64,000 nt of DNA from assembly GCA_965645245.1 (NCBI GenBank), contig OZ287067.1, forward strand, positions 868,001-932,000. Reading direction: 5' to 3'. This DNA comes from Massalongia carnosa (Eukaryota). Shown one piece after another: positions 18,942 to 60,461 of this stretch (positions within the stretch are counted from its first letter, which is position 1; every line of letters begins with the position of its first letter). The notes beneath the pieces are model-generated. The model did not search any database. It was not told the DNA's origin and saw nothing but the letters and a program-made list of their open reading frames with translations. Position numbers and translations under genes: made by a program.

Positions 18942-20129
18942 TCAAATCTGATCCACGCTCGTCCGGCTCTTTGCGCTGAAGTTCCGAACGAACTTGACAT
19001 CCTTGCAGTGTAAGCCGCACATTCTTGGTGGACCTAGCCGTTGTATCGGCCGGGAATGGGAAGCCTCTACTTGTAGCAATCAAGCATTGGGTGCTTCATT
19101 CATGGAAAGACTACTCTCAAAGATTACCCTGCCTTAGGGTACAGCCTAACTCTCCGTTTCAAAAACAAAAAGCCAGCTAGATCACGATTACCTGAATACG
19201 GAAACGATGGAGAAGACGTTTTACCTGTACATGAGCGGATTTCCCTTCCGCGGCTTTTTCTATCAGTGTCCACGGAGTTCGTTAATAGACTACTTAAACG
19301 CCTCTTCTACTTTATTTTCTTTAACCCGAGACAGCCCTTTTGATTCTCTATTCCGTGTTATTGGGTTAGGGAGGAAAAACTGGAGTACATCGGTAGCGAA
19401 ATCCGGCCGGTTTCGCTGTACATGATTTTAAGCCAGCGACGGCGTTTTCCGGGGAGTTTTGGTGAGGCAAGCCAAGACTCGCGTCTCATGGCGAACCCAT
19501 TCTAGCAAGCTTTGGAGATCAAACGGAGCAATCAAGACGAGAAACTGGATTGCGAGGCGAAAACAGCGGGTGGCTTTGTCGGGCGGGAAGTTGTTGCTTG
19601 CGGAATCATGATATTTCGAGAGGGGTTTTCACTTCGAGGATTGGAAAAAACAGCCAGGGGAAAATCAAAGTGCTTGATCTTCCTTTCACAAAACTTCATC
19701 TAGATCGAAACGAGATTTTTATCGATTAAAACTTCATACTATTATTGTTCGCCTTTCTATCCTCTTAGCCCTTCCCCCCACACCAGGCAGACGGACAGAG
19801 AACCCTGACCTACCCTTTGCACAACATGAATGATGAACAATGACTTTTCCCTCGCTCTTTAAAATCATCATCACCATCATAACAACAACATGTCCAAAAC
19901 CCGAAGCCACTCCCTCTCCTCTTCTCATGTACTCCCATCTATTCGCTCAACTTTCACCTCCCCTGCACGTTATTTCCAGAACAAGAGGAAACCCACCCAT
20001 CTCGTCGTTTTGAGAACTCGGAAAAAGAAGAAGGATGATGATGAATAGATAGATAGACGCTAGGTAAATATATATATATTATATACACCCCGAACTTAGG
20101 ATTCGAAATTACCGTTCCGGGACGGGAAA

Positions 20130-20290
20130 GGGAGCAGGGCCGCTTTAGAGGGAGCAGCGAGGGAGCAGCGAGGGAGCAGGGGGGAGCAACGAGGGAGCAG
20201 GGGGGAGCACTGAGGGAGCACTGAGGGAGCAGCGAGGGAGCAAGAGGGAGCACTGTGGGGCAGTGCAGGGGCGCAGCAGGTGGGAGCCTG
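20130..20290 (+). repeat. Subterminal GGGAGCA array, distal end of Starship 1
   Basis: 11 exact GGGAGCA copies at 20130, 20150, 20161, 20172, 20182, 20193, 20203, 20214, 20225, 20236 and 20246, then degenerate copies; 10-11 bp spacing. Confidence 0.9.
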
Positions 20291-20806
20291 AATTGGCTGC
20301 CCTGTACCCGGCTATAGCTGCTCGCATTATTTATGACGTTCGTCAGCACTGCTGCCTGGCTCAGCCTCCTGCTGCCTAAGTTAATCAATGGGCGAAGAGG
20401 AAGGGAAGAAAATGTGGCGTTTTGATATGAGATGACGGAAACACGCAAGTTGAAGCCAAAAATTTGTCTAGCACTAAAACGAAAGCAAAGGATCTTCTTG
20501 AATGAACATCAGATGCGGAAGTCGGAAGCCATATGGAGTATTCTTCGTGATGCTATAAGAAGCGCTATAACATACGATGTGTTATTTTGGTATTACTGAC
20601 CATGCGTTGCACTCATCGGGATAGATAGGTTTCAGCTATGTAGAGAGTCTATCGTGAGACTACAGCTGTCTGGCCCAGGGACTTCGAACTTGCTCCCATT
20701 GCGATCACAAGATAAGCCTGAATCTCCAAAGTGCAATTTATACAATGACAGAGCAAGGTGAGAAGAGAGAATGTCGACGCAACGCAGCTAAGGTTTTATC
20801 GAGCGT

Positions 20807-21205
20807 CTAAATTTTGCCGGCAGCACCATTCAAAATTTCGGTGAATTCCTCATAAGACGCATCCTCGGGAATTATCAAAACGGCAGCCTCAGCATGAGAG
20901 CCGTGTGTCCTGATCCAGTCTTTGATAGACTTCCGTTCCGCCTCGCTTGCAGCTTGCCATTTGAAAACATTTGCTTTCCTGGTGGCGCCTTTGGTTGCAC
21001 CTGGTCTGGTGTCGGGTATGGTCTTGGTTGTGTCGCTGAGATCGAAATGGAATCCAACATTCTTGAGTTCCCTCTGCGAGGTGGGCCACGTGGGTTTACC
21101 AGGTTTAGCTGTCGGATGAGTAAATTTCTGGGCCACCTTTTCGATGTTCTGCGGCTTGGTCATGAAAGAGACTGCACTTTTCGCAGCTCCTCCTAAACCA
21201 GACAT
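20807..21205 (-). CDS. Small hypothetical protein (132 aa), distal cargo gene
   Basis: ATG-initiated ORF with protein-like composition; no motif recognised. Confidence 0.55.
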   Translation of the reverse strand: MSGLGGAAKSAVSFMTKPQNIEKVAQKFTHPTAKPGKPTWPTSQRELKNVGFHFDLSDTTKTIPDTRPGATKGATRKANVFKWQAASEAERKSIKDWIRTHGSHAEAAVLIIPEDASYEEFTEILNGAAGKI

Positions 21206-21561
21206 GGTTGCTATGATTCTAGGGACCTGAGACGTTACAGTCAGACTTTGTGAATAGAAGGAATGGTGGAGAGCTCACTTGTCTGTTGCTGGTATCTTTT
21301 GGGGTTTCTGGGTTGAAATTAAGGCTGGTCTTTAGCCTCTGCTTGGGCGGTTGATCAGATGCATGTAAAGTATAATGGGGTTTGAGGCTCGGCAGCAGCC
21401 TAGGCAACCATAATGGTGATGTGTGAGTCACAAAGGCTAAAGAGGCGCAGACTTGGCCGCATCTGAGTTTGAGATCAGTCCAAATTGGGGATAGTCATAA
21501 TTGAGGCCTTTTATCCGGCGTTTTGTCGGTGCGTCATCCACCTTCAAATCCCCAGTTGATC

Positions 21562-23436
21562 ATGTCGTTGATAAATTTCACCCTTTCACGCACCATCCAA
21601 CTGACGTATCTCCGCAGATTCACAGTCGTATCATTATCTCCTCATCTGCACCGAAGTTGTTCGAGGGAGGCTCGAAAATATGCGCACATGGGCCCACCAG
21701 AAGATCATGCTTCTCCCAGTGACATATACGAACCATTCTTTCGGCATACTTCTCGGAGATGGATGTAAGCAACTCATACAAAGAATTGGCCGCGACCCTT
21801 CTAATACGGTTGACAAGCTTCAATGAAAAACAGCGCATGGCCGAGCGCTATGTTCGCTTCAATGTACCCGAATTGATGCGTACCGCAGCGATGGCGGTAG
21901 GAAGAGACAGATGTGTCGATATAATGAAGGTCACTGAAGGTGGTTTTAATAAGATATTTCTTCTTACGATGGATGATGGATACGAGGTGATAGCGCGGAT
22001 CCCTACACCTATCGCTGGACCGGCTCACTATACGACCGCGAGCGAGGTTGCAACCATGGACTTTCTCCGTGCTCGACTGGACATACCAACACCAAGGGTA
22101 TTTGCGTGGGCTTCCCGGGTTGGTGGCGATAACCCTGTCGGTGCAGAGTACATCATAATGGAGAAGATGCAAGGAGAAAGTCTTGCTTCCCGCTGGTTGT
22201 CGCTTTCCACGAAGGAACTCGCCGAAGTCATCGAGAAAATTGTAGATATCGAGAGTCGGCTCTTTTCAGCTCGTTTTTCGGAATACGGAAGCTTATACTA
22301 CAAAGAGGACTTGGAAGAAGAGGTTCGCGAGAATAAACCAAACGAGCAAAATGGAGTGGACCTTTTCTCTGGCCAATTTGATATCGGGCCTATCGCAAAC
22401 AGATCATTCTGGGCAGAGGAGCGGGACCAGATGACGTTAGACCGCGGACCATGTTTGTTTCCCCGTATATGTCACGCAATACTCTACTGATCGAACCGTC
22501 ACAGGGATTCGCTCAGAGGATTATTTGACCTCTATTGGCAAACGAGAGGCGGCTTGGACTATTAAGCTTGGACAACCACGGCATAGACAATTCTTTTTCT
22601 CTTTCTCGGAGCAAAACATCGAACCAAAAGATCATATCTCCTTACTTTCACAATACGGTCTTGTGGCCCCATGTATTGAACCTAAACAAGAAGGCCTTGC
22701 CTCACCAACCCTCCGACATCCTGATCTCCACCAAAGTAACATCTTCTTACGTCCACAATCAACAGACATACTTGGTATTATTGACTGGCAAGGTGCTTCA
22801 ATACTTCCGTTCTTTCTTCAATCAGGATTTCCTGTTTTTTGTGACCACAACTCAGGGCGTCCACAGACGTTGGAGAAGCCGAAACTCAGCGATAATTTTG
22901 AGGAGATGAGTCCCGGAGAACAGCAAGAAGCTTTGATGGACTTGAAGCATAAACAAGCAAACCTTTATTACACAGCGGCTACGGGACTGAAGTGTAAACG
23001 TCACATGGAGGCGCTTCGGCTACCATACCTTGACATGCGGCAGTATCTGATCAAGCAAGCTGGCATGCCTTGGGATGGTGATTTAGTTAACCTTCGAGCA
23101 GCCCTGATCGGAGTCCACTCTAAATGGGACGATCTTGTTGGAGAACGTGCCTGTCCAATTTCGTTCACGGATGAGGAAGTGCGATTTGCAATGCAAGAGA
23201 GCAGAGAATGGAACGAAGCCGCCGAAGTGCTTACCACGATAAGGGATACGCTGGGTATCGATGGAGAGGGTGGCACGGATCCTGAGAATTACAATCGTGC
23301 TGCGGCTCTCAACAAGGAATGGAGGATACAAATGCTAAAAGAAGCAAAGGCGGAGGAGAAGGAGCGAAGTTGGCAGATATGGCCATTCAAGGACGATGGT
23401 GACGACTCTAAAGCGCCCACAGCTGTAAATAACTGA
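21562..23436 (+). CDS. APH/Aim9-like phosphotransferase (kinase-like fold), 2 introns
   Basis: FFRHTSRRW spliced to FNE..RYVRFNV; EGGFNKIF, ARIP, SEVATM, catalytic HPDLHQSNIF and IIDWQ. Introns at about 21765-21817 and 22453-22504. Confidence 0.85.
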
Positions 23437-23783
23437 CTATTCTATATGCCTGTACTTTCGAAATTGTATAAGGTCAACAACGACAGTTTAGCTGCATAGA
23501 AAAACCCCCCGTTGAACGTCCTGCCGTAAGCCGTGTAGATGTGAAGGCTTTTAAGAGTCTGCAGGCGGGAAGCTAAATACGACGAAGCAACTCGATGATC
23601 CGGGAATAGTCAAGATTATCCGGATTTATAAATACTCGTAGACGCCGACGGAATTCGTTCCACGATTGGCGACTACCCCACCATTGCGTTGCTTTTATCG
23701 GCCTTATAATAGCCTCACTTTAGTACAAGATAGCTCTGCCATAGTATGTTCCTCTAGTGACAAAGTTTTATCGACCCCAAGCC

Positions 23784-26700
23784 ATGCTCTTCCGAAACGA
23801 CATGGCAGAAATTGATGCGTTAGTACACCTATTTTGATACAGCAGGAAATGATCTGACCCTACTTGTGTGGCAGTAAGCCTTGCTTCGATTTCAGGCGTG
23901 GGAAATGCAGATACGGAAATAGATGCAAGTTCACTCACGAGTCCAAGCCCACTTCAAAAGCGCCTCATCGCGAACCATGCCCATACTTTGGGACATCGAA
24001 GGGTTGCTTTAAAGGGCAGCAGTGCAAATTCTCGCACGAAATCGTGGCAGGTAAAAATGGTGCCACAACACAACCACCGCAGTCTACCGCTAGGCCACGA
24101 CCGCAAAGCGAACTCGAAACCGGCTTCCGAGAATGGACGTTCCTGATACCGAGGCAGAATACCCGGTTCCAAGTTGTGGAGGTTGGGAAGTTCTTCACAG
24201 TGGGCTGGGACCTCACCAGCAAAGAGCATACAGAAATTGGGCAACAGATTATTAAGAAGCTAGCAACTGAGGAAGGGCTGGCCATGATCAAGGCCCTTGC
24301 AGATGAAAAGCTCGATGGCGTCAAGCTAGAAGCGAGCCTGCGTATCTTTAAGGACAGAACGCTTCCCTTTTTCCGAACCATCTCTCACCCGGACATTCTA
24401 TCGTCCTTGATATTGGAGACACCGCTCGACACCATTTACACGTTTATTTTTGGCCCAAACGGTCGTCGTGCTATCAACTTGTTCAAATCTACGACTTCCG
24501 CTCTTGGAGCCCTTGCGCGGGAGGAAACAGCCAAAGATGAAGACCTGACGTCGATTGCGGTAACAGCGAGCTTAGCGGTGCTAGAGAGAATCGTGGAGTT
24601 AAATCAAAGCGCCCAGGTCATTACGGAGCTCACGTCGATTGTGAACGACTTTTCAACCTCAATCCCAGAACAACTTCTGCAGGCCGGAAGTCGAAGCTTA
24701 GCTCGTGTTCGCCAACGACTTGGTCTTGGAGCTGCAATGCCTTTGTCAGGAGGCCGCCCTCTAGAGCAGAAGAGCCATCGACCGGTCTTCGAAGTAGGTC
24801 AAGACCTTCCTGGCGCGTTGTCGGAGCTAGGTCCACGACACGACAACGATCACGCAAATATCTTCGACATCAAGATCCTGCCGACTACCGAAGAAATTCA
24901 ATCCCCCCGATTGGAGTATCTACCTTCGAGCGATCCTACGAAGCACCATCTTCCTGGTCTGGCGGGCTTACTCGACCGACAATTCAGACTTTTGCGTGAA
25001 GATACAGTCGGTCAACTCCGCGATGCAGTGCAGATGGAATGTAAGCGGCTTAACAAACCCCCTAATGCCCAACCGCCATCAAAGCGACAGAACAATGGCG
25101 TTCGAAATATCATCTATCACAATGTCGCTCTGCTTCGACTTGAGTTCGATCGGAAGAAAGGGCTCCAGGTTGTGGCTGAGTTTGACCAACCTCCCGCACT
25201 GGCGAAGAAGGGAGCCAAGGAGCGAGAAGAGTGGTGGAGGAATACCAAACAGCTACAGATCGATGCTTTTGTATGCCTTGTCTCTTCCACAGGTCGTGCT
25301 ATCTTCTTCTCTATTTGCGATCCTACTCCGACGCCTCCGCCAAAGAAGAAAAATGGTGAGGAAGAACGTGAGGTTCGATCAGCCGGATTTTGGAGGGCCT
25401 TCGATGAGCGGCCGAATCTTTTCAAGCATGCAGACCGAGCCACGTTAATGCTAAGCCCGGTCGAGGATGATTCGGAAGATGTCACTTGGATCAACAATCA
25501 CCTCGGAAAGGCTCACAAGCTACGACGGTCGCTTGTCGAGTTCCCAGGAATTCTACTACCGTCCTTCCGACCGACGCTGCAAGCACTTCAAAAAATGAGC
25601 CGCACCCTTGATCTCCCTTTCGCTCAATTTGTCGCCCCCGATACACAACATGCAGGAGATGTCGACATACCTGCCCCTGCGTACTCTCGCACGCCTGGCT
25701 TTTCCTTCAATCTGGAGACCTTGGCTGGAGGAGAGCAGCTGAGACTTACACCCGGACAGCCTTTCGGCGATACCACACTCCATGAGAAATCTACACTCGA
25801 CGATATGCAGCAGCTGTCTACCATAAATGCATTAAGAAGCTGTCTTGCGCTAATTCAAGGCCCACCAGGTACCGGCAAGAGCTACACTGGTGTCGCTATC
25901 ATCAAGGCCTTACTAAAAAATCGCAATGCAGCTAAGCTCGGGCCAATTATCTGTGTATGCTACACCAATCACGCTCTCGACCAGCTTCTCGAGCATCTAG
26001 TTAAGGATGGCGTAGAGCAGCTCATCCGTTTAGGATCGAGATCGAAATCAGAAGTTCTCCAAGACTTGAACCTCTACCATATATCAAAGGAAATCAGGCC
26101 CACGAAGGTTGAAGGCCATGAGAAATATCAACTCTATGAAAAATTAGATATCGCTCTTGATGAAATTGAGAAGCTCATGCCAGGTCTTCGGGATCCAGCG
26201 CGCTGGAGCAATATCAAAGATTACCTCGCAGGGCACCACAACGGTCACTTCGAGCAACTTTTCGGACGGGGAGTTGACGAGCATGGATTCCGGGAGGTAC
26301 GCGGTAAGAAGTTCAATATTTTGCATAGTTGGATCCACGGAGCGCCCAAGCGCATTGCTTCAACTCGCCCAGTCCCGGAACTTCTCGGTGTCAAGTTACA
26401 GGAGATGTCTGGCTCCGAAAGATTGGCGTTGCACAGGTACTGGGTCCGACAAAACACCATGGAACTCACCCGCAGTTTCCTACACGTTCTCGACTCATAC
26501 CGCCATATCAATGATTCGCTCAAAAAATGCCACCAGGAGCTAGACCTGCGTTGCCTACTTCGCGCACACATTATTGGTGTTACAACCACAGGCCTGGCAC
26601 GAAATTTAGATATCCTCCGCCGAGTGCGAGCAAAAGTGGTGGTATTTGAAGAGGCGGGAGAGGTATTAGAGGCACATACCCTCACCGCACTCCTGCCTTC

Positions 26701-29700
26701 CGTCGAGCATGCCATTCTCATTGGGGATCACGAGCAGCTAAGGCCCCAGATCAACAACTACGAGTTCCAATACGACAATCCTAGGGGTGCAAAATTCTCT
26801 TTGGATATCTCGCTTTTCGAACGACTGGTCCATCCTCAATCTGGTTATCCGCGGCTTCCTTACAGTTCGCTGGAGGTTCAGCGTCGGATGCATCCATCGA
26901 TCGCGGAGCTGGTTAGGTCCACGCTCTATCCTAAGCTGCAAGATCACCCATCAGTATCCACGTATCCAGAAGTCGACGGAATGCGGAAACGCCTCTTCTG
27001 GCTCGATCACAACAAGAGGGAAGATGCTTCCCCCTCGAATACAGTGCAGTCATTTTCCAAGACTAATGCTTGGGAAGTAGAGATGACAGCTGCTTTGGTC
27101 TCTCATCTCGTCCGCCAAGGAGTCTACCGGAACGAAGATATCGCAGTCCTGACTCCTTATCTAGGACAGTTGCAGAAGCTCAAACAGCGCCTACGATCCT
27201 CCTTCGCGATCGTGGTCGGTGACCGAGATCTCGAAGATTTGGAGGCGAAGGGACTGGAGGGTGATAGTGAAGAAGAGACGACTGCAAATCAAGGTAATGT
27301 TCGCAAGACAACGTTGCTGAACGCTTTGAGGATCGCTAGTGTGGACAACTTCCAGGGAGAAGAGGCGAAAGTCATTGTCATCTCATTGGTCCGGAGTAAC
27401 GACGAAAGGAAGTGTGGATTCCTGAAGACGTCGAATCGTATCAACGTCTTGCTAAGTCGCGCCCGCCACAGAATGTATATCATCGGCAACACACACACCG
27501 CACGTCCTGTTCCTATGTGGGATAAGGTTATCACGATCCTCGAGAACGACGGAAACATAGGTAATACTCTAGCGCTATGCTGCCCGCGACATAAAGAAAC
27601 CCCAATCGAGGTGTCGGAGCCCGACGACTTTTCTATCTTGTCGCCCGAAGGTGGCTGCAACAGAAAGTGTATCTCACGACTTAGATGCGGACATGCCTGT
27701 ATCAATAAATGCCACTCGGAACCGCTGCATAATGCTGTTCGGTGCCTGGAGCGCTGCCAAAGGGTCAAAAAAGGCTGTGATCACGCCTGTCCGAAGTTTT
27801 GCGGAGACCCCTGCGATTCGAAATGTCAAATCCAGATGCCGAATATCGCCTTGCCTTGTGGGCACGTTCAAACAAGTTTGGCATGCCACCTTGCACAGGC
27901 TCCGGAAGCTGTTCGATGCCATGTCTTGGTTGAAGCTGTTATGCCAGATTGCAAGCATACTGTAAAGGTTCGCTGCTGCGAATTTCCACTTGCAGCAGAT
28001 CACCCATGCAACGCTACATGCGGGGCCGCTCTCGGGTGTGGCCACGACTGTAAACGGATTTGCAAAAATTGCAACCCAAGAGGTGAAGACGGCCATATCT
28101 CGGAAATTAATCACGGTGTCTGCAAGACTCAATGTAGTAGACAGTACACCACTTGCAGCCATGCGTGCTCAGAGGCATGCCATGGGGATAAGCCATGTCG
28201 GCTCTGCTTGGAGCCGTGCGAAGTTCGGTGCAGTCACTCGCGTTGCAGTAAGAAATGCCACGAGCCTTGTGTGCCTTGCGTCGAAAACTGCTCTTGGTCT
28301 TGTCCACATCGCGGCGCGTGCAAATTGCCATGTGCGGTGCCCTGTGACCTGCTTCCGTGTTCCCAACGCTGTTCGTTGCCGCTCAGTTGTGGTCATGAGT
28401 GTCCTTCTGTCTGCGGAGAAATATGTCCAGAGGCCCGATACTGTCAGAAGTGCGCCGATAAGTCGGTGAAGGATACGATGGTTGATTACATCATGGGATC
28501 CACCTACGCCGAGATTGATCTAGACGAAGGCCCTTGTATTATACCATCTTGTGGTCACATCCTCACCTTAGAAAGCATGGATGGCCACATGGAGATCGCA
28601 AAATACTACATCATCTCTGATGACACCAATGGTGAGAACTCAATTATCGGATTGAAGTCGAGGTCGGTTCCGTTCTCGACCTCGGAGCTGAAAAACTGTC
28701 CTATGTGCCGTAGCCCTCTTCGCAATATCAATAGATATGGCCGCATAGTTCGACGAGCGTGGATCGACGAGGCGACTAAGAAATTTGTTGTTTGGGCAAA
28801 CGCCCAGTTTGTTCCCTTGGCCTCCAGAATGGAGCAGGCAGAGGCCAAACTTCGAGAATCCGTCACTGAAAAGCAAGCCCCCAAATCTCCGCTGCCTGGA
28901 CAAGCGGAGCTATCTTCCGCGCTTGACAAGCTTTCCCTCGAGCAAATTGGGCTTACCGGTTCTCGTGATCAACAGATAAAGGTAGTTCTCAAGGCCTGCA
29001 AAGCAAACCCTAGATACAAGGATGTATCATGGCTCCGCAATGAAATTAAAAGATTCCTCAAGGAAGTTGATGAAGCAGAACAACCCATTAGCCGCATTCA
29101 TGATCTCGTACAAGACGCGCGTAAACATCGTGGTGTCAACACCGAAATCATTGACTTGCCGTCCGTTCTTCAAGTCCACAACAGGCTCCTAGCAACAGTG
29201 CTACTCCTCCGTTGCGACTATGCCATACTCTCCGATTTCGTCACTCACGGCTGCGACATGGCTTCAGGCGGAAATCTTGGGAACGTGTGTCTCAACCTTG
29301 CCTCAAATCGAAAAGATTGCGAGAACCTAATGCAAGAGTCGCGATCCCGGCAACAACCGGCTCACGAAGTGGAGAGTCTCCTGTACTGGGCCCGCTTCGT
29401 CGCCCTTGAGCGCAGCCGCTCTGCCAGCCTCTCGGACGCAGACACGATCGCGCTCGTCGACCGCGCCCGAGACCAACTCCACCTCGCTCGCACCATCTGC
29501 AAAACCAACCCGGGTCAAACAGCCGGCATGTCGGAGGAAGTGTCCGCAGCGGAGAAAATGCTGCGCGACTCGACATTCTACGCGCCGGTGACGAATGTGG
29601 AGAAGGCGGCTGTGTACGCTGCCATGGCGCAGAGCTTTCAGGGTACGGGCCACTGGTACTACTGCGCCAATGGGCATCCGTTCACGGTGGGCGATTGCGG

Positions 29701-29827
29701 CATGCCGATGGAGACGTCCAGGTGTCCCCAGTGTGGGGCTACTGTGGGTGGGGCCCACCATCAACCTGCAGACGGGGTTAGGCGGGCAGAAGACTTGGAA
29801 GCGGAGTTTGGGAGGCGAGGCCGGTAG
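23784..29827 (+). CDS. ZNFX1/NFX1-type SF1 RNA helicase with CCCH fingers, NF-X1 Zn-finger array, RING-like region and C-terminal RZ-type finger (about 1,995 aa)
   Basis: Two N-terminal CCCH fingers. Helicase motifs QGPPGTGKS, EEAGE, IGDHEQL, DNFQGEE and NVLLSRARH. Cys/His-rich CGH repeats, CIIPSCGH..CPMCR, and terminal GHWYYCANGHPFTVGDCG..CPQCG. A short first exon starts at ATG 23784. Confidence 0.92.
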
Positions 29828-32696: not shown

Positions 32697-32783
32697 GCAT
32701 CCACAACTGGAAGCATCCGGAATTGGCGACATCCACAAATAGCGACATCCAGAAGTGGCGGCATCCAGAATTGGCGGCACCCA
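32697..32783. repeat. Short imperfect tandem array (about 16-bp unit, CATCCAGAATTGGCG-like)
   Basis: 5-6 imperfect units read directly. Confidence 0.6.
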
Positions 32784-49031: not shown

Positions 49032-49080
49032 TAACATCCGTCCCTGGGTCGCGAGACGCACCCCGTCGCGAGACGAACCA
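49032..49080 (+). repeat. Dispersed internal repeat, short copy B (about 50-bp core)
   Basis: TAACATCCGTCCCTGGGTCGCGAGACGCACCCCGTCGCGAGACGAACCA matches the start of 34775 and the reverse complement of 53727-53776. Confidence 0.85.
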
Positions 49081-49950
49081 ACAATTTGGACATCTAAAAT
49101 CTCTCCCTTGCAAGTCTATGGAGATATGGTTGGTAAAGGACTTTTTTACAGCCTTTTCTCCTCCTGGACACCCTTCTTCAACGAAAATTACCGCGGTGTT
49201 GGTCATGCTGTCGCTCGTTCGGTTGACGCCATCAATTGCCGCTTCAGCTTTTTCCCCCTGCTAGATCACGGTCAGTCACATATTTTCGGTTTTCGGAACC
49301 ATACGTAGTAGTATGATAGTCCCATGAAGAAAGAATATAGCTCCAAGCTTTAAACATACATATAGAAGTCTCGCCGTGCAAGAAAGGGTGGCGACGGCCT
49401 CGCGCCTTGGGGCGATATTATAGCGTACCTTGGCGTGCATTAGTTTATCTGCTCAATACTGTATTTTTGGTATTATATCATGCCATCCCCTTTTCGGTTA
49501 GGATGACTGTGGCGCACCGTGGTAGGTTTCTAGAAGCGTCCATGGGGAGGCACGTGCCCACTTTCTTTGCGCCTAACTTAAAGGGGGTTCTTGGCGAGAG
49601 CGAGTAGCTTAGCGAGGGAAAGAGCCAGCCAGTGAGCCAAGTAGCATTACACATGCAGGTTCGCCTAAGATCTCACGCACTTACTATGGCAGTGCTTTAG
49701 TGCATGAAGCTAGTGATTATGGACCGCTACTTCCTGGCACGAGATCAAGCCTCATTCCGCCCGTATTGGCTGCCTCACGACCGGCAATTCTTGCAAACTC
49801 ATACTACAATCGACATTCTTAAAGATCCGTCGCCTTGGTTGCGAACTTCGACGGCCGTTTTCGATTCTGCAAAAAGTCTGCGATCGGTTCTTCACTTCGA
49901 CAATTCTCTTAGTTTGATCCGATTGAGAATACGGCTGCGCACAAAACACC

Positions 49951-52116
49951 ATGGAGCACCTCCTGTGTGATGAGGAACTACGTAGGCGACGTCCAAGTAT
50001 GGCAAGAGTGAAATGGCTGGGGTTTGACCACGATTCAAATGGCGAGTATGAAAGGGGCTCCATCCAAGAATACCCTCTGCGCCGAGGTTGGACCGCTATA
50101 GAGATCGATGATCTTAAGAAATGCAAATTGCCAAGTCATCGCTCACTTAAAGATTCCCTCGCTATGCTGCAAAGTTGGATGAGTCTTGGCCTCATGGAAT
50201 GCTTCTTTGGACAACCATTCGCCAGTTCCCTTTTTGTCTCCCAAGTTGGAAATACAGAATTCTTCCACACCAAGCACCTGCGAGGTTACATTGACGATTG
50301 GCAGACTCGCAAATTGCCTTCGTTCCCTCGCCTAGTGATGCTCATGTTCGAGGGTTGCATCACGGACGCCCTGGATGAGGCCCAATCTTGGAACCACCAG
50401 CTGGTCCTCACACAGCGCTTGTACAAAGACCGTAGCCTCTTTGCGGATCGTGCGCTTTTCGATTCGGTGATTCGATTGACTACATTAGTTGGGGAGGCTC
50501 TACAAGCTCTAGCGGAGAGATTTCCTACGTCCAGAAGCAGATTCGCTATGGGGTACGAATGGTTCATCTCAGACGGCAATGAACAGCGACTGCATACCCA
50601 ACTAGAAAGACAAGGTTGGTGTCCGTCAATATACAGGATTCTTATCAAAGGCCTCCGTATGCCATTGTCACTATTGGAATATGCTAGCCTCGTTCGACCA
50701 GCCGACGCAGACCTTCGTATGCACGAGCGCTGCTCATTGCATGATTGTGTAGGATACAATTTGGACAACAAGACGTATCGGACTGAGCACATCTTTAAAG
50801 GCTGCCAATGCAAGCCTTTCTTGTTGCCGTCCCTCTTGAAGACGAGAGATATTCTTCTCGATAACGATGTTCCACTTATCAATGGAGATGTCTTGTTACA
50901 ACGCAGCTCTGCAGAAGGCTCTGTGTCTCGTGCCGGCTCTGGTCTTCGTTACGTAGCCTTTTCTCACATCTGGTCTGATGGTCTCGGCAGCTGTACAGAA
51001 GATGGTCTGCCCCGGTGCCAAGTAGAGGCCCTATGCAATATGGCAATGGAAGTTGGGAACACGTCTCAATTCTGGATTGATTCTCTTTGTATCCCAAGAG
51101 ACGTTCGAACGAGGAAGCGAGCTATCTCACAGATGGCGAAAACCTATCGGAATGCGTGCGCAACGATAGTCCTTGATAATCGAATCAAGACATGCAGCGC
51201 ACAAGACACCAAAGAAGAAATCATGCTTACTTTAGCATCGTCTGTGTGGCAACGGAGACTTTGGACCTTACAAGAAGGTGCGTTATCTAATAGAATGTAC
51301 TTCAAGCTGGCAGACTCATTTCTGCACGATGGGACGCTCCTGGACAATGCGGGTCCAGAGGCGTATAAACCGATCATCAGAAATTGTATCTCACACCTGG
51401 ACAATATCAGTGCTTGGGCTCTTGTTGGTGATGTAACTATTGGCGCAATGCAACGCAACATATCTCATAGAACGAGCAGTACACATGACGATGAGGCTCT
51501 GGCAATGGCCTCTTTGCTAAATCTGGATGTCTCCGACATCTCTCGATTACTCGATGTCGACGGCGAGGAGCGGATGATACGCTTCTGGTCCATGGTTCCC
51601 TCGATTCCCCGAGGCATAGTAATACTGGGGGGCGCAAGAATTAAGCAGGAGCCATTCCAGTGGGCACCGAGATCGCTGATGAGTAGAGAAGATCAAGGAT
51701 CAATGGACAAAAGGGACGGGAGTGCGAAATCTACGTCAATGGGCTTGTTAGCGACCTGGTATATCTATACAGTCACAAAGGGCGTGCTTGTGAATCTCGC
51801 TGTCGATCAAGCTCACTTCTACAATGCACAGACGAGCGCTGTTCTTACTGTCTATCCCGATAAGGAACGCACAGTCGAACCATTTCACTGCCACGTGGAT
51901 GCGATCTTGTGTCTTGACAGCCTGCCAGTCAGCGACCGCGAGACAGCTGGTGTTGTTCTTTCATTCGTCAAGACGTCTGGCCGCCGCAAGGTATACAAGT
52001 ATGAGAAACTATGTCCAGTCTGCTTGCATGATAATGAGCCAGCAGAATTCATCAGATTTCTAAAGCAAGAAGAACAAACCGTCACAGGCGCCATGGAAGA
52101 GCTGGTTATATCTTAA
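49951..52116 (+). CDS. HET (heterokaryon incompatibility) domain protein, 721 aa
   Basis: HET motifs YVAFSHIWSDGLG, FWIDSLCIP, AISQMAKTYRNA..VLD and WQRRLWTLQEGAL in an intact ORF. Confidence 0.9.
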   Translation: MEHLLCDEELRRRRPSMARVKWLGFDHDSNGEYERGSIQEYPLRRGWTAIEIDDLKKCKLPSHRSLKDSLAMLQSWMSLGLMECFFGQPFASSLFVSQVGNTEFFHTKHLRGYIDDWQTRKLPSFPRLVMLMFEGCITDALDEAQSWNHQLVLTQRLYKDRSLFADRALFDSVIRLTTLVGEALQALAERFPTSRSRFAMGYEWFISDGNEQRLHTQLERQGWCPSIYRILIKGLRMPLSLLEYASLVRPADADLRMHERCSLHDCVGYNLDNKTYRTEHIFKGCQCKPFLLPSLLKTRDILLDNDVPLINGDVLLQRSSAEGSVSRAGSGLRYVAFSHIWSDGLGSCTEDGLPRCQVEALCNMAMEVGNTSQFWIDSLCIPRDVRTRKRAISQMAKTYRNACATIVLDNRIKTCSAQDTKEEIMLTLASSVWQRRLWTLQEGALSNRMYFKLADSFLHDGTLLDNAGPEAYKPIIRNCISHLDNISAWALVGDVTIGAMQRNISHRTSSTHDDEALAMASLLNLDVSDISRLLDVDGEERMIRFWSMVPSIPRGIVILGGARIKQEPFQWAPRSLMSREDQGSMDKRDGSAKSTSMGLLATWYIYTVTKGVLVNLAVDQAHFYNAQTSAVLTVYPDKERTVEPFHCHVDAILCLDSLPVSDRETAGVVLSFVKTSGRRKVYKYEKLCPVCLHDNEPAEFIRFLKQEEQTVTGAMEELVIS

Positions 52117-52729
52117 AACAATTTGCGTTGTTCCCCCATTGTTCCGTTTCTTCATACCTTGCCCGGGCAGGCATCGCCAAGCTTGAAGCCCGTGTTCGCA
52201 AGGAGCGCAATCGCGAATGTCCCTAGCTCAGAAATACCCTGACTTCTTTGAGGCTCAGGCGTGCAGATAGAAAATGTCATCAATGCATATGAAGCGGCAT
52301 TTGATACCAAATTTGATAGTGTGACGTACTAGGTGTACGCGGGCAGTAGTATACGATGTGAGATACTGCAACAACCATGCATAGGTGATTCCGACAGACT
52401 GCCGACGGGACTCCGACGGTAGTCCGACAGCATCGAGTTATGGAAGCACCTGGAATGAATTGGGGGCACCTATGCCAACAGCAGTAGGAGAGGTTGATTG
52501 AAAGAAAGACTAACTCTTGCCCCTCCATGGAGGTGGCAGAGTGCTATTATATAGAGATGACTTCCCCGCATTTGTAAATCAACCAATAGAGAATGAAGCA
52601 ATACATATAGCGCGCGACGAGGTTCCGACGGGCTTCCGACGGACCTCCGACGCGGCCCCGACCGCATAGATATCTCATTATGCCATTATACTCCATGCAG
52701 ATGCTCGCCACCATATGCTTGCAGTCTGA

Positions 52730-53050
52730 CGGTTACATAACAACTTAGGCAACCTTTACAAGAATCAAGGCAAGCATAGCGAGGCGGAGAAGATATATCG
52801 GCGGGCGCTGGATGGGTACGAGAAAGCATGGGGCCCGGACCATATATCGACTCTTGATACCGTCAACAACTTGGGCAACCTTTATAAAAATCAAGGCAAG
52901 CTGGTGGAAGCAGAAGAGATGTATCGGCGGGCGCTGGATGGATACGAAAAAGCATAGGGCCCGGACCATATATCCACACTCCGTACTCTCAATAACCTAC
53001 GTTTGGTTGATGCCAGTCGAGGTGGGCATATGAAAGTGGAAGAGATATAA
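52730..53050 (+). pseudogene. TPR-repeat relic typical of fungal NLR C-termini
   Basis: Two roughly 42-aa repeats NLGNLYKNQGK..EAE..YRRALDGYEKA(W/*)GPDHIST, with a stop codon and no upstream NOD domain. Confidence 0.8.
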
Positions 53051-53322
53051 TCGCAGGGGCTCGATAGAAGCGATGGAGTTTACGACACCAATCGGCATCC
53101 ACAATCGCCACCATCAACGGGGAAAGGCATCTTGAAGAGACTCAAAGTACGTATACGGAGGCGGGAAAGGGGCTTCACATAACCAAATTTCGTTATGCAG
53201 GGAGCTTCACCGCGCCGGGATGGGGTTCAATCAAGATGTTGTCTAACTTAGTCGCAATTCGGCGCAATAGAAAATTCGTAGCCACAGGCCTATCAGCCAC
53301 AATATAAATTGCGCTGTAAAGT

Positions 53323-53776
53323 ACAGTAATGATTACGCGGGATATGCCGAGTAGGGCAAAGGCTTCTTCATCGTGGCTTGGCAGTACCAACCGACGTGGC
53401 GACGCCGCATGTCATAGCGCCTCACAGCCGCCATAAGGCTGACAACGACTTTTCAGCGTCCCTATATGATTCTAGGACTAGGGTAAAGGTCATTCACGAT
53501 TTCCGACAGTGGTACAAGCTTAATGGTGGTCCTATGGTGGACGAGTGCTGTTATTCCACCAAAAGGGTTATCATCGTAAATTTAGGGGGCGGCGACGATG
53601 CGAATGTAAATTTCCAGTAGCTGCTCACAGAACCGTTCAGAATTGGCCGCATCACAAGACTGATGCAAAAATACGGGAGACTTCCATGCGTTCACAAATT
53701 AAAGTCGCTTGAAATCAAAGTACCTGTGGTTTGTCTCGCGACGGGGTGCGTCTCGCGACGCAGGGACGGACGTTAC
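53323..53776 (-). repeat. Dispersed internal repeat, copy C (inverted relative to copy A)
   Basis: Reverse complement GTAACGTCCGTCCCTGCGTCGCGAGACGCACCCCGTCGCGAGACAAACCACAGGTACTTTG.. aligns with 34775-35236. Confidence 0.8.
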
Positions 53777-54461
53777 TACAAATCCATCATCGTAAGTCAG
53801 CCAAGACCGGTCAAGTGTCTAGATGTGAGATTAATAAGGAGATTCCCATCTCAATTCTCGAGCAGAGAGAGCGGGGTCGGGAGCAAGATTGGGGAGCCAG
53901 GCATGGCTGCGTGAGCCAAGAATGGAGCAGGGTAGGTAGAAGTGGATTGGGGGAGCCAGAAATGGAGCCGGGGAGCCAGAAGCGGGGCAGGGGACTCAGA
54001 AGATTGGGGGAACCAGAAGTGGCTTGCATGTAACTGGTATCCACCTTAGAGACTACTAGCAAGACTAGAGTAGTGGGAGCCTACATATCATCGTCGTCGT
54101 CATCATCGGCGGAGCCAAGAGTGGAGGGGCGCGTACCTATTTTCGGGATTTCTGGAACGGATAATCTAATTAGTCGGTTGGTAGATTCTTGCATACCATC
54201 ACTGACCATATATCCAAACCCAGCCTTAAGAGATTTTCAGGTCGCCTAAGAGGATGATCAGGCAGCTGAAGTTCTTTGAATGGAATCCTCGAGAATTCCC
54301 AGTGTGGTACGCAAACTTAGTCTCATCGAAAGTCATTAGGTTATTGCATGCATATGATGCAGATTTTGGAAGTCAGACGCAAAGCTCTCCTAACTGGCTA
54401 TAACAGTATCTACCACATCTATACCCAGACTTGCTTGCTTATAAATAGGTGCAAAGACTCC

Positions 54462-55224
54462 CTATCCGAGGTGCTCTTCCATGGAGGTGCAAGCTAGCTC
54501 CGATTTTACCTGATCCAGAGCTATGAAAATCTTGTTCATTTCTCTGCAGTATCTGTCTGCATTGCTCTTTGACTCCTCAGCTATTAGCTTCCACTCACGT
54601 ATGTGCTTCTCGAATTTTCCATTGTCCATCTGCAGCTGCTGGATGGTGACTTTCAGTTCACCAGCTTCTAATTCAGCTGCTCGTCTCCTTTCTGACTCTG
54701 TAGCAACCCGACGTTCCCATTTGCTAATTTCGCGAGTCAATCTGACGTTGTCCTGGTGTAGGTCGTCAATCTTTGCCACAAAACTGACTTCCGGTCTGGG
54801 AAATTCCAGAAACTTATTAGGCAGTCAGCTGATCGTCGAAGTAACGAGAACGAGCAGCGCGTACAGACTTTCCCCCATCCTGTACCCGGGGTTCTGATTG
54901 AAACGGGGCCTTCCAGATAGCTATAAACGATTTATCGACACCATCACACAAATCCTTGAGCTGGCCAATCGAAAGATCACTGAGATTTTTCGAGAACAGG
55001 TACTCCTTTTCGTTTAGTTTTTCCCACGTATAAGGGTCATCCGCGTTGGTTTTGAGCCGCACCTGCGACGTCTCTATCACGATTCCGAGCCTTCTATCTT
55101 TGCTCGTGTCAGTAACGGCTGACTACAGAAGATGACGGCTCTTACAAATATGCGCTGATAGTTTCTCTCTGCATTTCTTGTTCCACTCCGTTCGCTTTAC
55201 ATTATTGGGTCGACGAGAGGCCAT
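54462..55224 (-). pseudogene. Coiled-coil hypothetical protein, probably disrupted
   Basis: ATG at 55224, a probable intron, then ORF 54817-55080 ending in tandem TAA TAA, followed by an out-of-frame heptad-rich ORF 54462-54779. Confidence 0.45.
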
Positions 55225-55705
55225 TTTTTCTTTGGATCGTTTGGAGAGTGAATTGATCAGAATTCCCAAAGGAGTTACCAGCTATTATTTTCAGTGAACT
55301 TGATGTCATCATTTAAAGAATCTGGGCATGAACAGAAGCTGGATTGGACGTCAGAAGCTTTTGACTCTTCGTGGGGCTCCAGATCTGGCACCCTCTCTTG
55401 GGGAGCCAAAATTGGAGCCCCAAATCGAAGGAACGGAGGTGAAAATCTGGACACCTGCGTTGATTGGAGGTTTTTTTCAATCCATGCCAAAGTCCTCCTA
55501 TTGTCACGAGCTGACTGTAGGCTGTGTAGACCTGCTTCAAAAGTATAGTCTTAGGGCCATCATCTCGTTGATGCGCAATAAATGGACCTGGGATTCGAGC
55601 GACGGCGGCCCGAATTTAGAGCCAGGACACAAAGTATTATACGTATTTAACCTGGTTACGAAATAACTAAGGCAGAAATTATCTGAGGTTTCCCCTCTTT
55701 CCACT

Positions 55706-56443
55706 TCACAACCACCACCCATCCTTTCCCGTTGCACCTATGTGACGCAAAGATCTCACGTTGAATCCAATCTTTTGAAAGTAATAATCCGATGGGTGTT
55801 CCGCACGCATGTCGGATTGTGACAAGATGAGACAGCATATATTATCCACCTGAGATAGTCGCTTTGCTTTTCCATTGATGCCAGCAATCTCATTATATTC
55901 AAGTCGTCCGAGCGCATGATTACGATGCTGCCAGAACAGATACTTTCCTTCTGGATGGCCGCTACTAGTAGAAAACAGTTTTTTCAAGTCTGGCAGCATC
56001 AAAACCTCTGGATCATTGAGCACAGCCTCAATATTGACGACTAGCCCACAGCCAATGCGGACTTCTTTGGTAGCCTCATCGAAGTTGTGCGGTTTGAGAC
56101 AGGAGAAGAATAACTGACGTAGTTCCTCACTCCAAGTGGTGAAATCTCCCGACATATCACCAGGCTGAAGTATCAGATAATTCTCCTTACCTCCCTTTCT
56201 CTGGGAACCGTGGTAGCACTTTTCCAGGTCATAGCCTATTAGAACGGGGTTGATGTGTCGGTGCTCTGCTTCGTCGAGCCATTCCTGACTTTGGAATATT
56301 AAGTCCCATACTCGTGCATGCTTGTGCTGTGCTGAACGAAGCCGAAAATGAAAGATCAGGGATGCGTTTAGAGCGGATAGCGATGATAAATTCTGTGCGA
56401 TAATGTCCCACACCTCTTGGGCCGGTTTATTCGAGAAAGGCAT
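55706..56443 (-). CDS. Hypothetical protein next to captain, F-box-like N-terminus
   Basis: MPFSNKPAQEVWDIIAQNL start resembles an F-box; the 3' end is uncertain. Confidence 0.45.
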   Translation of the reverse strand: MPFSNKPAQEVWDIIAQNLSSLSALNASLIFHFRLRSAQHKHARVWDLIFQSQEWLDEAEHRHINPVLIGYDLEKCYHGSQRKGGKENYLILQPGDMSGDFTTWSEELRQLFFSCLKPHNFDEATKEVRIGCGLVVNIEAVLNDPEVLMLPDLKKLFSTSSGHPEGKYLFWQHRNHALGRLEYNEIAGINGKAKRLSQVDNICCLILSQSDMRAEHPSDYYFQKIGFNVRSLRHIGATGKDGWWL

Positions 56444-56847
56444 TGAAGTTGAAACTATCAGGATGAGTCGTAGAGAGATAAGTCGAATGAGGCTGCAACG
56501 CAAAGGGGGGTCGCTTCGACTTTATATGCATTATCAACAATCAATGCGAGTGGGTAGCCAATAATGGATACCCCAGCCGGAAGTCGATGCCATATCTAGA
56601 AGTGGGTACCCCAGCCAGAAGTTGGTACTGTAGATATATCATTTGTGTAGACGAGAGGCTTGAGTGGTCGACAAATGCAACATGCTCAATTTTTCTATCT
56701 CATTAGGCCTGGTCAGAACCGGGGCTACGAAATCTCTCATCCCGCTCTATAGGTCGATGAAGCACACCTTCGGCTCTAAATTACTTAAAGGGCTGTGGTA
56801 GTCTCTTGTAGCTAAATTTCTAATTGCGAATGCGGAACCATCTCGTG

Positions 56848-59800
56848 CTATGATGGGGGAATAGCAGGCTGCGAAATGGACTCGTTGAGCAGTCTCGGGT
56901 CGATAGATAGGGGAAGGTCGGAGATGACTGACGCCGGCGTCGTGTCATCGAGTGCGGTCTCGTCCGAGGTCCAATCAATTGACGAAAGCGGGCTTTCAGA
57001 GCCTGTGAAAGATGCTGCGGACGAACTTCGCTTCTCCTGATTTACTACCGAGTCGATCGAAGGAAGAGAGTAACTTTGACTAAGGCTATTTTTATCTTCC
57101 AGTCTCACTGGTCCAGTCCGAACGATAATGTCGAGTGGCTCGAATATTGGCGAGTCTATTGTTTTATTGATATGCTTGTAAGAACTTTCCTCGTTCAGGA
57201 GGTCACAACGGTACTCCAGCTTGACGTTCGCGCCGGTAAGAGCCCTCACATTCAGAGAAGACTGACGTGTTAGGCGGCGCCTTTTGATCGGATCGAGCTT
57301 GATGCGCTCAACGCAGTGTACATCCTGACAGTGACACTGAAGATCTTGAATCGAGTCGAAAGAAAGTGCACAGCGTGGATCAGGACATGGGACTACCTTG
57401 CTTTCACCCGTTTCCACGGATCGGTTGTACCTGTCTTCGAAATGCCAGAAATGTTCTTGCAGGTGCTCTTTCCAGCTCTGTTTAACGAGGAACTGATGGA
57501 AACGTTTCGTTGGTGAGAGCTTCAAATCGAAGAGACAGAAGAGACACTGCCCAGCAGTAGCAAGGGTTCGGCGGAAGACAAGTGGATTGCATTGAACTGG
57601 GAGCGTCTCGAGGTCGGTGAGATGGCGTTGACAGTGCTCAAACCATCCGGTCCCACTGGTGATCCATTCGTCGCACTGAAAACAGAGCTCGGCAAAGCCG
57701 TATTTCCTTTCAAGGTCGCCCTTGTGGCAACGGTAAATATGTTCCCACCTATCGCCCATACTGATGCTGTAGAATCGAAGGGTGGTCAGCCAGTCCGCAA
57801 CAACTGAGCATATGGGAAATTAGAAAGGAGAAGCAGACGAACCGATCCATATCCCTCGCACATTGGGGTACAGGGCAACGACCGTTTGCAGGCCGCAAGC
57901 TTGGACGATAGGCTACCCGCGGATTTTCTTTGCACAACGTGATCATATCCTGAAGTGCGCTGCGGCCCTGCATACTGCGGAGGGGAACGTTGAGGAAGAG
58001 CAAAGACGCCAGCCGATCACGTGGCGGATCCAAACGGCGAATCCGGTTGAAGTAGCTTGGCAGACTTGCGACTTGAGGTGCTTCATCCTCCGTGGTTGAG
58101 GCAATCTTGCGTGGTTGAATCTGCTGCCATTTGCTGAGCTCCTCGGACACGAGCTGGCGTTTTCGCCAATACAGTTCCTCTCGTCGAGCCCGAGCTGGCT
58201 GGGCTTCATCTTCTAACGTGATGCCCCGAAGCTTCTCTCCCAGTATTTCGATCTCCTTGTTGATGGAGACGAAGTCGGCACAGTGATCCAGGTTGGCTTC
58301 GACCTTTGCGGGTAGCGATTGCAACAGCTGAGGATGGTGATGGAGCGATAGCCCGCGAAATCCTTCAAGATGGACGGTGCGGCGTTTTTTGTTCCAGTAA
58401 CTCGCCATACCGTCCACAGTGCTCAGCTCAGGCGCGTATGAGCCAAAGAAAGTATCTGCGTTGTTATGGCCGGCGAATTTCATCCTTTCGGCGATTGAGT
58501 AACCATTATCTTTAGCCGAGTCAGCGTGTCTCAATGGTCGTGGTTCGTCCGTAAGAACTTACCATCGGCTTTGACAAGGGCTTCTCTTCGAATATCATGT
58601 ATCCCAATATTTTCCTCGTACCCGGCGCGATGCCCCAGATCTACTGTCCGATTACTGAACGAGCCCGCTCCATGAATCTTTCCTGTGGGTCCATCCGCAG
58701 ATACTATCTGGAAAAAAGGTACACGAAGCATGTCCTTTTTGATTCGAAGATGGTGCAAGGACCCATCCGCAGGTGGTGGAATCGCCTCGATCTCTTCGAA
58801 AGACCCATAGTCCTGGAAGGCATCATCCGCTAGGGCGATTGCCATCAAAGGTAGCACTGGGTTCGCAAATAGTGGCTCCATATCCTCATACATGCCATGC
58901 TGTGGCCTAGAATCACATCAAAACAGTCAGCAAGGATTGCTCTCAACCATGATCCCGAAGATTTGGACAGTGAAGTAACCTTTTATGCGGTGTTTCCGAA
59001 AAGCCTTTTGCGTCTCTTATGACTCGCACACCAATTTCCGCCTCCTCCTTTTCATTCTTGAAGATGACAAAGTCGATTGTCTGCTCGCAGCGTAAGCGCG
59101 ATGCTCGACTGCTTTCTTGGTCGGCAGTGCCTTATAGGATCAGTCCACTTACCTCATATAGTAGTCCACGGCCGGAGCCTCTGCGCATGTTCGATTTAAA
59201 ATACTCGCCTACTCGCGCCGACGAATAGATGAAAAGCATGTAGGCAGCGTGATCCTGGACGAGGATCCTTCCATGTCTGTATTGATGCCAATCCTTCATC
59301 CACATGTGTTTGATCACGATAACGAAGTGGTTCACTGTCATGAAGTGCCGAGTTCGCCGAGTTGTTGAAAGGTTGAACTTCTTGCGTAGCTCGGTTTGTA
59401 TGTACTTGTAAGATCATCAGCCCCTGCAGGTAGAGAGGAGGAGCAAATCGGAGACCGGGTACGAACAAAAAATGTAGACTCCGACACGTCAGGAGGAATC
59501 TTGTCGTTGCCAGGCCGCCGTTTCCAACCGGCGCCAAAGTCTGTCCATTTCTGAAGCATATAGTACATAGATGGTTCCTTCTCACCGGCACAGCAGCCGC
59601 GCACAACACCCTCCATGAAGTGCTTTGTCGTTTTCAAATGGTGGGGGCTTGCGCCAGGGTTTCTCCTTGCATATCTGTTCCAGCAAAACGAGACACAGTC
59701 AGTGAGAATTTTGCAGGACTTCGTAGCAATAGGGAGAGATGTGGAGACCTACTCGTCCCAAAGGACCAACATTCGGTTATAGTTAACTTCAGTACCGGAC

Positions 59801-59913
59801 TCGATGTGCTTAGAGACCGTATCGCCATCGATATCGGCGTTATTTAGAGACTCATGGCCATTTGATTCCGCATCATCGAAGAACTGCGCCGCAGTCCTCT
59901 TCTGCTTCACCAT
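56848..59913 (-). CDS. Starship captain: DUF3435-type tyrosine recombinase, 7 exons, about 880 aa, apparently intact
   Basis: ATG at 59913 (MVKQKRTAAQFFDD). The spliced path gives tyrosine-recombinase catalytic motifs SSARVGE (R), RDAKG (K), HDIRR (HxxR) and AGH..FFGSY (H, Y), then C-terminal C2H2-like fingers (CPVPQC, CFQC..HC..H, CPDPRC..HC..H). No stops were seen. Confidence 0.9.
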
Positions 59914-60265
59914 TGGAGACGAGGTAAAGGGGGAAATTGTAGCTAGACAAAGCTACCCTGGCCACTGAGGCGTATACAGCGAAGAGAGAAAGAGAGAGAG
60001 ATATGCAGAGTGGATATGAGATGATAACGTCTATAATGACGCGCTTGGTACACTGACGGGTTACTGCAGGACGCAGGCAACTAGAAGTGAAGGTAAAGAG
60101 TAAGAGGAAAAGAGCAAGAGGGCAAGAGCAGAAGATAACATGGTGGGCGGTCGGTGGAGCCATAACCGGCTCCTCTCTGATCAGCATCCAAAACAGGCTG
60201 ATTGGACGCTTTCGTTTAAACTTGTAAGAACGCATTAGCAGCTAAGGAGTAGGAAGTGGCTGAGG

Positions 60266-60387
60266 GGGAGCACGGGGGAGCAGAGAGGGAGCACGAGGGA
60301 GCAATGAGGGAGCAGGGGAGAGCAGCGAGGGAGCATGGGGGAGCAGAGGGAGAGCACATCGACGAAACGGGCGTTAGCGGGGGAGCA
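60266..60387 (+). repeat. Subterminal GGGAGCA array, captain end of Starship 1
   Basis: 8 exact GGGAGCA copies plus 2 GAGAGCA variants, mostly 10-11 bp apart. Confidence 0.9.
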
Positions 60388-60443
60388 AAGCGGCGGCTCC
60401 TTAGTCAGCGACCGATCACGTGTTGGCCTGGGTTCGGGGATGC

Positions 60444-60461
60444 TATATATATATATATATA
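60444..60461. repeat. (TA)9 microsatellite between the two Starship ends (putative target site)
   Basis: Sequence reads ..GGTTCGGGGATGC-(TA)9-GTTTCCCCGAACC.. Confidence 0.9.

Follow-up and report, generated by a model that had tools for sequence, protein, structure and literature searches.

Starships, as described in part of PMC11162782, have a gene for a DUF3435 tyrosine recombinase, the captain, as the first gene at one end, read inward. They carry tens of kilobases of unrelated cargo, short terminal inverted repeats, short direct repeats and nested transposons, and their cargo varies between relatives. All of these traits are found in an element of 40.4 kb (about 20086-60443, here named element A) in a stretch of 64,000 nucleotides of Massalongia carnosa DNA (OZ287067.1, 868,001-932,000). 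The whole stretch is called the window, and all feature coordinates are window positions. The defining Starship features that were testable are present in A, namely a DUF3435 captain, its location and direction as the first gene, the size and cargo, and the terminal repeats. It is likely, in our view, that A belongs to the cargo transposons of Starship type and is mobilised by the DUF3435 tyrosine recombinase that it encodes. The kind of element is already known, A being a member with TATATA and CCCCGAAC at its ends. A is a genuine and clearly bounded Starship from a multi-copy family with TA-repeat cores; its activity and completeness are unproven.

The comparisons that follow rely on parts of the published accounts. 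The direct repeats of Starships reflect homology of the element termini with the target (PMC10104507), and they reportedly move by way of a circular intermediate (bioRxiv 10.64898/2026.09.21.753150). Hephaestus of Paecilomyces variotii (PMC10104507) is experimentally mobile, and its repeats come from homology between termini and target, as we propose for TATATA in A. However, its target is TTAC(N7)A, whereas that of A consists of TA repeats, and no phased subterminal arrays are described in the sections of that paper dealing with it that were consulted. Phoenix and Prometheus (PMC11162782) share with A a bias to AT-rich targets. Theirs is a bias to regional AT-richness, often inside other transposons, whereas A has a defined TATATA or (TA)n core. 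Enterprise of Podospora (PMC8092012) is, like A, a giant tyrosine-recombinase transposon, and its target is a short palindrome. As in the family of A, there are solo ends and new copies beside old ones, and the Enterprise captain has a zinc finger (PMC11162782), as that of A has C2H2-like motifs. Unlike A, Enterprise has the target CTACCT||AGGTAG and the repeat RGGTAG, and no terminal inverted repeats were found in it. Tangerine of Xanthoria (PMC13486527) is another Starship of lichen-associated fungi with nested transposons, but it is 85-102 kb long, with the captain 1390 bp from the end, direct repeats of 4-5 bp, and DUF3723, patatin and NLR genes. Identity of A with Tangerine was considered and is ruled out by size, geometry and gene content as described.

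Judging by these descriptions, the target and repeat features of the Hephaestus, Enterprise and Tangerine families are absent from A, and its ends and the distance of its captain set it apart from them. A narrow full-text literature search found no description of a Starship family with the ends of A. In the part of the PMC11162782 supplementary tables examined, CCCCGAAC is absent; the same part lists one element with the direct repeat 'tatata', the downstream partner of which is annotated 'tataaa'. The locus tags of the captain homologues do not occur in the examined part of the starfish supplement.

Ends of element A and their relatives

The distal end of A reads TATATA-CA-CCCCGAACTTAGG, and the captain end, on the minus strand, reads TATATAG-CAT-CCCCGAACCCAGG. 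TA tracts abut both ends, and the inverted terminal motif CCCCGAAC..AGG is present at both, with TATATA outside. To the left, the host flank terminates in CGCTAGGTAA at 20067. Counting both strands, the window has three matches to the pattern CCCCGAACNNAGG, where 0.06 would be expected, and none of 100 shuffled sequences gave three. Each match has TATA at a distance of 2-4 nt, and the combined pattern of motif plus TATA occurs three times against 0.01 expected. Thus chance is ruled out for the ends of A. There are three tracts of at least five TA units in the window, two of which are the ends of A. The third (7238-7260) lies in the host flank and contains no element.

Inside the terminal motifs, both ends of A contain arrays of GGGAGC(A) repeats (Table 1), with a spacing of mostly 10-11 bp. 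Both arrays are on the plus strand and thus are direct repeats, though the terminal motifs are inverted. A CACGTG palindrome (60415-60426), 9-10 nt inside the CCCCGAAC core, is invariant across all related captain ends and falls within their best-conserved terminal 100 nt. It could be a site for a host factor or a part of the recombinase site.

The right TA tract does not border host DNA but a decayed copy, element B, whose inverted captain end is opened by the third match to the terminal motif (60466-60478). Between the arms 58846-60455 and 60450-62023, 82-89% of the positions are complementary. Since the inverted copy lies beyond (TA)9, this tract parts two elements standing head to head, and not an element and host DNA. 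Each captain end has kept its own G (GC on one side of (TA)9 and G on the other), which argues that the G belongs to the element and that exchange takes place within the TA run. A foldback or an assembly artefact was considered as the source of the palindrome and is ruled out: the arms are only 84.9% identical, B has stops and a retroelement of its own, and a divergence of 15% does not fit a foldback. A is the intact copy and B the older, decayed one.

A search of metagenome contigs with captain exon 5 yielded 41 related loci, and their ends were compared with the terminal 742 nt of A. These match 29 of the 41 loci. The homology starts at terminal base 1-2 in 19 loci, which correspond to 15 distinct sites since three sites recur in several assemblies. 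As for the remaining end matches, six contigs stop before the terminus, and four loci (two distinct sites) are without the first 49-90 nt. All 15 complete captain-end sites have TATATAG-NNT-CCCCGAAC followed by (Y)NA(G/A)GC(C/T)A(A/G)CACGTGA, and their outer flanks are unrelated to each other and to the window. Conservation of the captain end is highest over roughly its first 100 nt. At 14 of the 15 sites there are 4-15 phased TGCTCCC (GGGAGCA) repeats at matching offsets, and the 15th has repeats with G-to-A changes. Array copy number differs among copies, as seen from joints in the distal alignments at 20103-20269. The imperfect terminal inverted repeat abutting TA tracts, noted in the first-pass annotation, is therefore confirmed at both ends of A and conserved across the family.

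Every complete end examined has TA sequence beside it, namely all 15 distinct captain ends from metagenomes, the three ends of the window and many distal ends from a rock metagenome. The proposal that the target is a TA microsatellite holds to this extent, but the length of the run varies, being 10-17 nt at eight of the 15 sites and only 6-8 nt at the other seven. Judged from these alignments, what stays constant is a TATATA(G) core and not a long microsatellite. One possibility is that the TA tract is the element's own terminal microsatellite and that insertion is not TA-specific. The short runs would fit this, as would the invariant TATATAG at complete captain ends and the phase break in the left tract immediately before its final TATATA. 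However, the length and interruptions of the longer runs are site-specific, as expected of target DNA, and tracts of at least five TA units are rare elsewhere in the related loci (15 in 322 kb). We regard this explanation as quite improbable. Besides, the views are not exclusive, as the Hephaestus repeat is common to termini and target (PMC10104507, in the part describing it).

For the distal end, four public sequencing runs were aligned to window positions 12001-32000. Homology breaks off where the left TA tract meets the flank (20068-20070) in 26 contigs of the rock metagenome, two contigs of a source-like run and one contig of a lichen metagenome, and the flanks of the 26 rock contigs show little mutual agreement. 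The depth is about 3900 over the distal terminal bin and 7864 at 20104, with about 840-880 in neighbouring host and cargo regions. A lichen-metagenome contig of 4755 nt runs from host position 15471 into the element at 20198. Cargo pieces from 20501 to 31791 are present in the rock metagenome, where the seven listed full-length-aligned contigs diverge by 0.3-4%. The rock metagenome has almost no cover over host positions 12001-20004, and the lichen metagenome has none over 21339-24006; these gaps are not read as absence. In one related locus, L012 (4440-4500), only TATATAGTAATATATAGC stands between the distal-type end GTTCGGGGTG and a captain end, so that this type of distal end also stands beside TATATA. 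The sequence is consistent with two elements in tandem, or with a past insertion into the end of an element. The occurrence of several copies, each with its own flanks, is an indirect sign of transposition, and A may still be active today.

Only about 6.8 kb of the captain-side backbone (60443-53776 plus 49031-48924) are common to the related loci, and no empty site is available. This leaves room for a smaller mobile unit, a Crypton-like captain module of less than about 10 kb, in which case the end at 20086 would be a solo end belonging to a different copy, with host or unrelated DNA for the intervening genes. On the other hand, no distal-type end occurs in any long locus within the sequence compared, which reaches about 7.9 kb from the captain end, and thus the family members are longer than this. 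No other CCCCGAAC-plus-TA end is present between 20100 and 60427, and the cargo pieces recur in the rock metagenome, where the distal end has many flanks. We consider a small module very unlikely and retain the 40-kb transposon as the preferred reading.

The captain recombinase

The captain gene has six introns, all of them GT..AG and 53-78 nt long. No other gene lies between it and the end at 60443, from which its ATG at 59913 is 530 bp away, and it is read towards the interior. The spliced product of 883 aa has no internal stops and, starting at residue 1, is collinear with a protein of 880 aa from Exophiala oligosperma, with 62.6% identity over 776 residues and no gaps at the splice joints. 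All four homologues tested pass the Pfam DUF3435 cut-off of 25.8 with 60-65 bits, and 18 of the 28 proteins retrieved with captain exon 6 have precomputed PF11917 matches. Both the intact recombinase about 530 bp inside the right end and its identification as a DUF3435 captain, as given in the first-pass annotation, agree with these results. The assignment of the captain to DUF3435-type tyrosine recombinases is supported through its homologues.

Tyrosine recombinases have the catalytic set R-K-H-R-H/W-Y, in this order. In the captain, R187, K232, H344, R347, H370 and Y380 lie in blocks conserved among the homologues and follow the expected order; we take them to be the catalytic residues, assuming that the motif order holds here. 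A profile search against solved structures found for the catalytic fold only XerA, at a non-significant E of 0.08. Three C2H2-like motifs (C-X2-4-C...H-X3-4-H) are present in the C-terminal third, at residues 606-728, and the captain family profile has weak matches to solved C2H2 DNA-binding proteins (E 0.002-0.07).

The coiled-coil frame located 3' of the captain (Table 1) matches 19 loci and is full length and stop-free in seven of them; in L001 it is stop-free but covers residues 1-69 only. When the region 53776-56900 was compared in six frames with eight loci, the frames were about equally conserved, and a coding signal was seen only for the coiled-coil frame. A frame of 271 aa (55709-56521) has a best Protein Atlas score of 0.87 without a family and is a lead at best.

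Cargo, nested transposons and completeness

The cargo of the window is listed in Table 1. The domain names of the helicase with the RZ finger, the deaminase and the HET/TPR gene suggest functions in conflict or defence. At 24007-31343 the source-like run is 1.4-3.5 times deeper than over the flanks and includes contigs of about 88% identity; the helicase and DUF7924 cargo therefore has diverged paralogues at other places in that genome.

Two transposons are nested in A. The interior of the copia-type retroelement, between the 5' long terminal repeat (LTR) and gag, contains a long tandem array of 50-51-bp repeats (43438-44790). The second unit, at 49034-53772, has a clean empty site (CCCC-TTA-CTAC) in eight of the ten loci compared. 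The other two, L008 and L011, have a like inverted repeat there, located at nearby TTA sites and with different interiors. No transposase domain was detected in this unit, and it looks like a non-autonomous transposon bearing an NLR-like gene. This gene (HET plus TPR) is the only NLR-like one in the element. A third copy of the 49-bp inverted repeat, with about 130 nt of subterminal sequence, was found at 34776-34852; its partner end was not found, and it is probably a fragment. Copy B, the two nested transposons with the rearrangement at one of them, and the direct orientation of the GGGAGCA arrays had been missed in the first-pass annotation.

Several observations weigh against A being a complete transposon moved by its own captain. 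Among the window's own single exons, Pfam DUF3435 detects exon 5 only, with 19.6 bits, which is below the cut-off given above; the expected match of the captain to this family stands, but through residues 155-487, which match end to end a profile built from the DUF3435 segments of four homologues. The two distinct sites with 5'-truncated ends, L028/L034/L035 (about 4580) and L021 (about 4590), have no TA. One flank is common to L028, L034 and L035 across three assemblies. L012 is the sole other distal-type end recovered as sequence. The 28-mer of the host flank (20040-20067) has no matches in the metagenome contigs, and the four aligned runs contain no empty allele, the flank being joined only to the element end. 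As no empty site was found, recent mobility is unproven, and the description of A as recent and possibly still mobile has not been borne out. DUF3723, ferric reductase and patatin were not detected among the 100 frames scanned (29 plus 68 of A, three of B and the flank); in the Starships described these genes, together with NLR, are frequent but not obligatory. The nested copia element is without a 5-bp target duplication (CCAAA versus GCTTG). Finally, synteny with related loci halts at copia, and at least 2.2 kb of backbone common to ten loci are unmatched in the window.

The last two observations indicate that A is rearranged at copia, and its left and right halves may come from different copies. 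Ectopic recombination between two copia copies could have fused a distal half (20086-42938) with a captain half (48926-60443), and A would then be a chimera or a relic, its 40 kb never having moved as a unit. The identity of the copia LTRs despite the missing duplication fits this, as does the location of the synteny break at the copia edge with the common backbone missing next to it. The cargo of the window and of the related loci is otherwise unrelated. However, with an intact captain and two ends of the correct type and orientation, A could in principle be mobilised even as a chimera, and fast cargo turnover within Starship families has been reported (PMC11162782, in part). We find a chimera possible though on the whole doubtful, and prefer the reading of A as one mobile Starship. 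In the first-pass annotation A was a complete element of about 40 kb with readable ends (20068..60461). The ends are real, at 20086-60443, but 'complete' is unproven, given the missing backbone, the copia element without duplication and the lack of an empty site among the sequences searched.

The left flank contains genes for a ZIP transporter, a protein kinase and a CBM21 protein, and low-complexity T- and C-runs. The GC content is 0.46-0.54 on either side of 20086. The reported shift in sequence character is modest. The CBM21 protein fits the gene labelled gac1 in the first-pass annotation. An open hAT transposase frame of 669 aa (11252-13258, minus strand) contains DUF659 and the hAT dimerisation domain. 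The source-like run covers it to a depth of about 23,000-27,000, versus about 840 nearby, and thus the family is high-copy. To the right, the retroelement that interrupts B is stop-rich, with a remnant gag, and looks like a product of repeat-induced point mutation. No comparable decay is seen in element A or in the hAT copy.

Table 1. Features of the window, from left to right
Feature	Position	Strand	Description
Left TA tract	20068-20085		(AT)6 T (AT)2 A, 18 nt; last TATATA is the proposed shared core
Distal terminal motif CACCCCGAACTTAGG	20086-20100	+	inverted-repeat core CCCCGAAC
Distal subterminal array	20130-20288	+	12 GGGAGC(A) repeats
Possible phosphotransferase (APH-like)	21723-23433	+	two adjoining frames; weak PF01636 matches that miss the curated cut-off (E 8.6e-5 and 2e-3)
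Superfamily-1 helicase (AAA_11/AAA_12) with C-terminal RZ-type zinc finger	23858-29824	+	1989-aa frame; PF13087 3.5e-40, PF13086 6.7e-24, PF20173 3.5e-24
DUF7924 protein	30943-32358	+	PF25545 3.4e-95
OTT_1508-like deaminase domain protein	39695-40909	+	PF14441 3.1e-17
MYND zinc-finger protein	40816-42570	+	PF01753 3.6e-6
Nested copia-type LTR retroelement	42939-48925	+	gag, rve, RVT_2; LTRs identical over 224 bp
Nested transposon, 4.7 kb	49034-53772		49-bp terminal inverted repeats, TTA duplication; HET-domain frame 49927-52113; TPR repeats 52730-52954
Coiled-coil frame, 120 aa	54465-54824	-	3' of captain, same strand; conserved
Captain gene	56848-59913	-	seven exons, product 883 aa
Captain exons	59913-59753, 59674-59467, 59404-59153, 59080-58980, 58906-58563, 58509-57843, 57766-56848	-	six-frame reading and tblastn with homologues
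Captain-end subterminal array	60265-60392	+	8 GGGAGC repeats, orientation as in distal array
Captain-end terminal motif	60427-60443	-	G-CAT-CCCCGAACCCAGG; plus strand CCTGGGTTCGGGGATGC
(TA)9 tract	60444-60461		common to two head-to-head captain ends
Element B	60462-62023	+	inverted decayed captain-end copy, 84.9% identical to A; two in-frame stops in its captain
LTR retroelement	62024-64000	+	AT-rich, GC 0.36-0.37; starts TGTTAC; zinc-knuckle gag PF00098; cuts B captain in exon 5; runs off window

A candidate site for excision and integration

The recombinase would excise A as a circle, in which the ends would be joined as GTTCGGGG-(AT)GC-TATATA-CA-CCCCGAAC, a pair of 8-bp core sites in inverted orientation with TATATA as the overlap between them. 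The predicted end-to-end junction of the circle is GTTCGGGGATGC-(TA)n-CACCCCGAAC, with phased GGGAGCA arrays on both sides of the core in one orientation. The circle would integrate by exchanging strands with a TATATA or (TA)n sequence of the target, the presumed site of crossover, leaving a TA core at both junctions. The element ends themselves would remain targets, each junction retaining the TA core. Such retention would explain why A stands head to head with the older copy B, and it also fits the tandem pair in L012. The C2H2-like fingers at the C-terminus of the captain may bind the GGGAGCA arrays.

In attP of phage lambda, inverted core sites surround a short overlap and are flanked by arrays of a second type of site. 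The layout in A is similar in outline, and by analogy it suggests a recombinase with two DNA-binding specificities. However, there is no sequence relation, the arm repeats of A are many, phased and in a single orientation, and their binding is predicted. The tentative model is that A has an attP-like site with inverted CCCCGAAC cores around TATATA and phased (about 10.5 bp) GGGAGCA arms read by the C2H2 fingers of the captain, that any TA microsatellite may be a target, and that the element's own ends may be targeted again, giving rise to arrays of elements. As a whole this model is rather uncertain and may well fail. If true, this would be the first Starship family with the full site architecture and a simple programmable target readable from sequence.

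Starships are thought to carry adaptive genes within and between fungi, and there are few families in which ends and targets have been defined from many insertions. The family described here offers 17 complete captain ends and a distal end against dozens of flanks, a simple TA-repeat target, core- and arm-like sequences, and a captain with C2H2-like motifs. It provides a concrete, bench-testable model of site recognition, and an integration tool directed at TA repeats might be built on it. The family is present in lichen and rock metagenomes, and its named relatives come from black yeasts and lichen fungi; it is thus relevant to the proposal that lichen-associated fungi exchange Starships.

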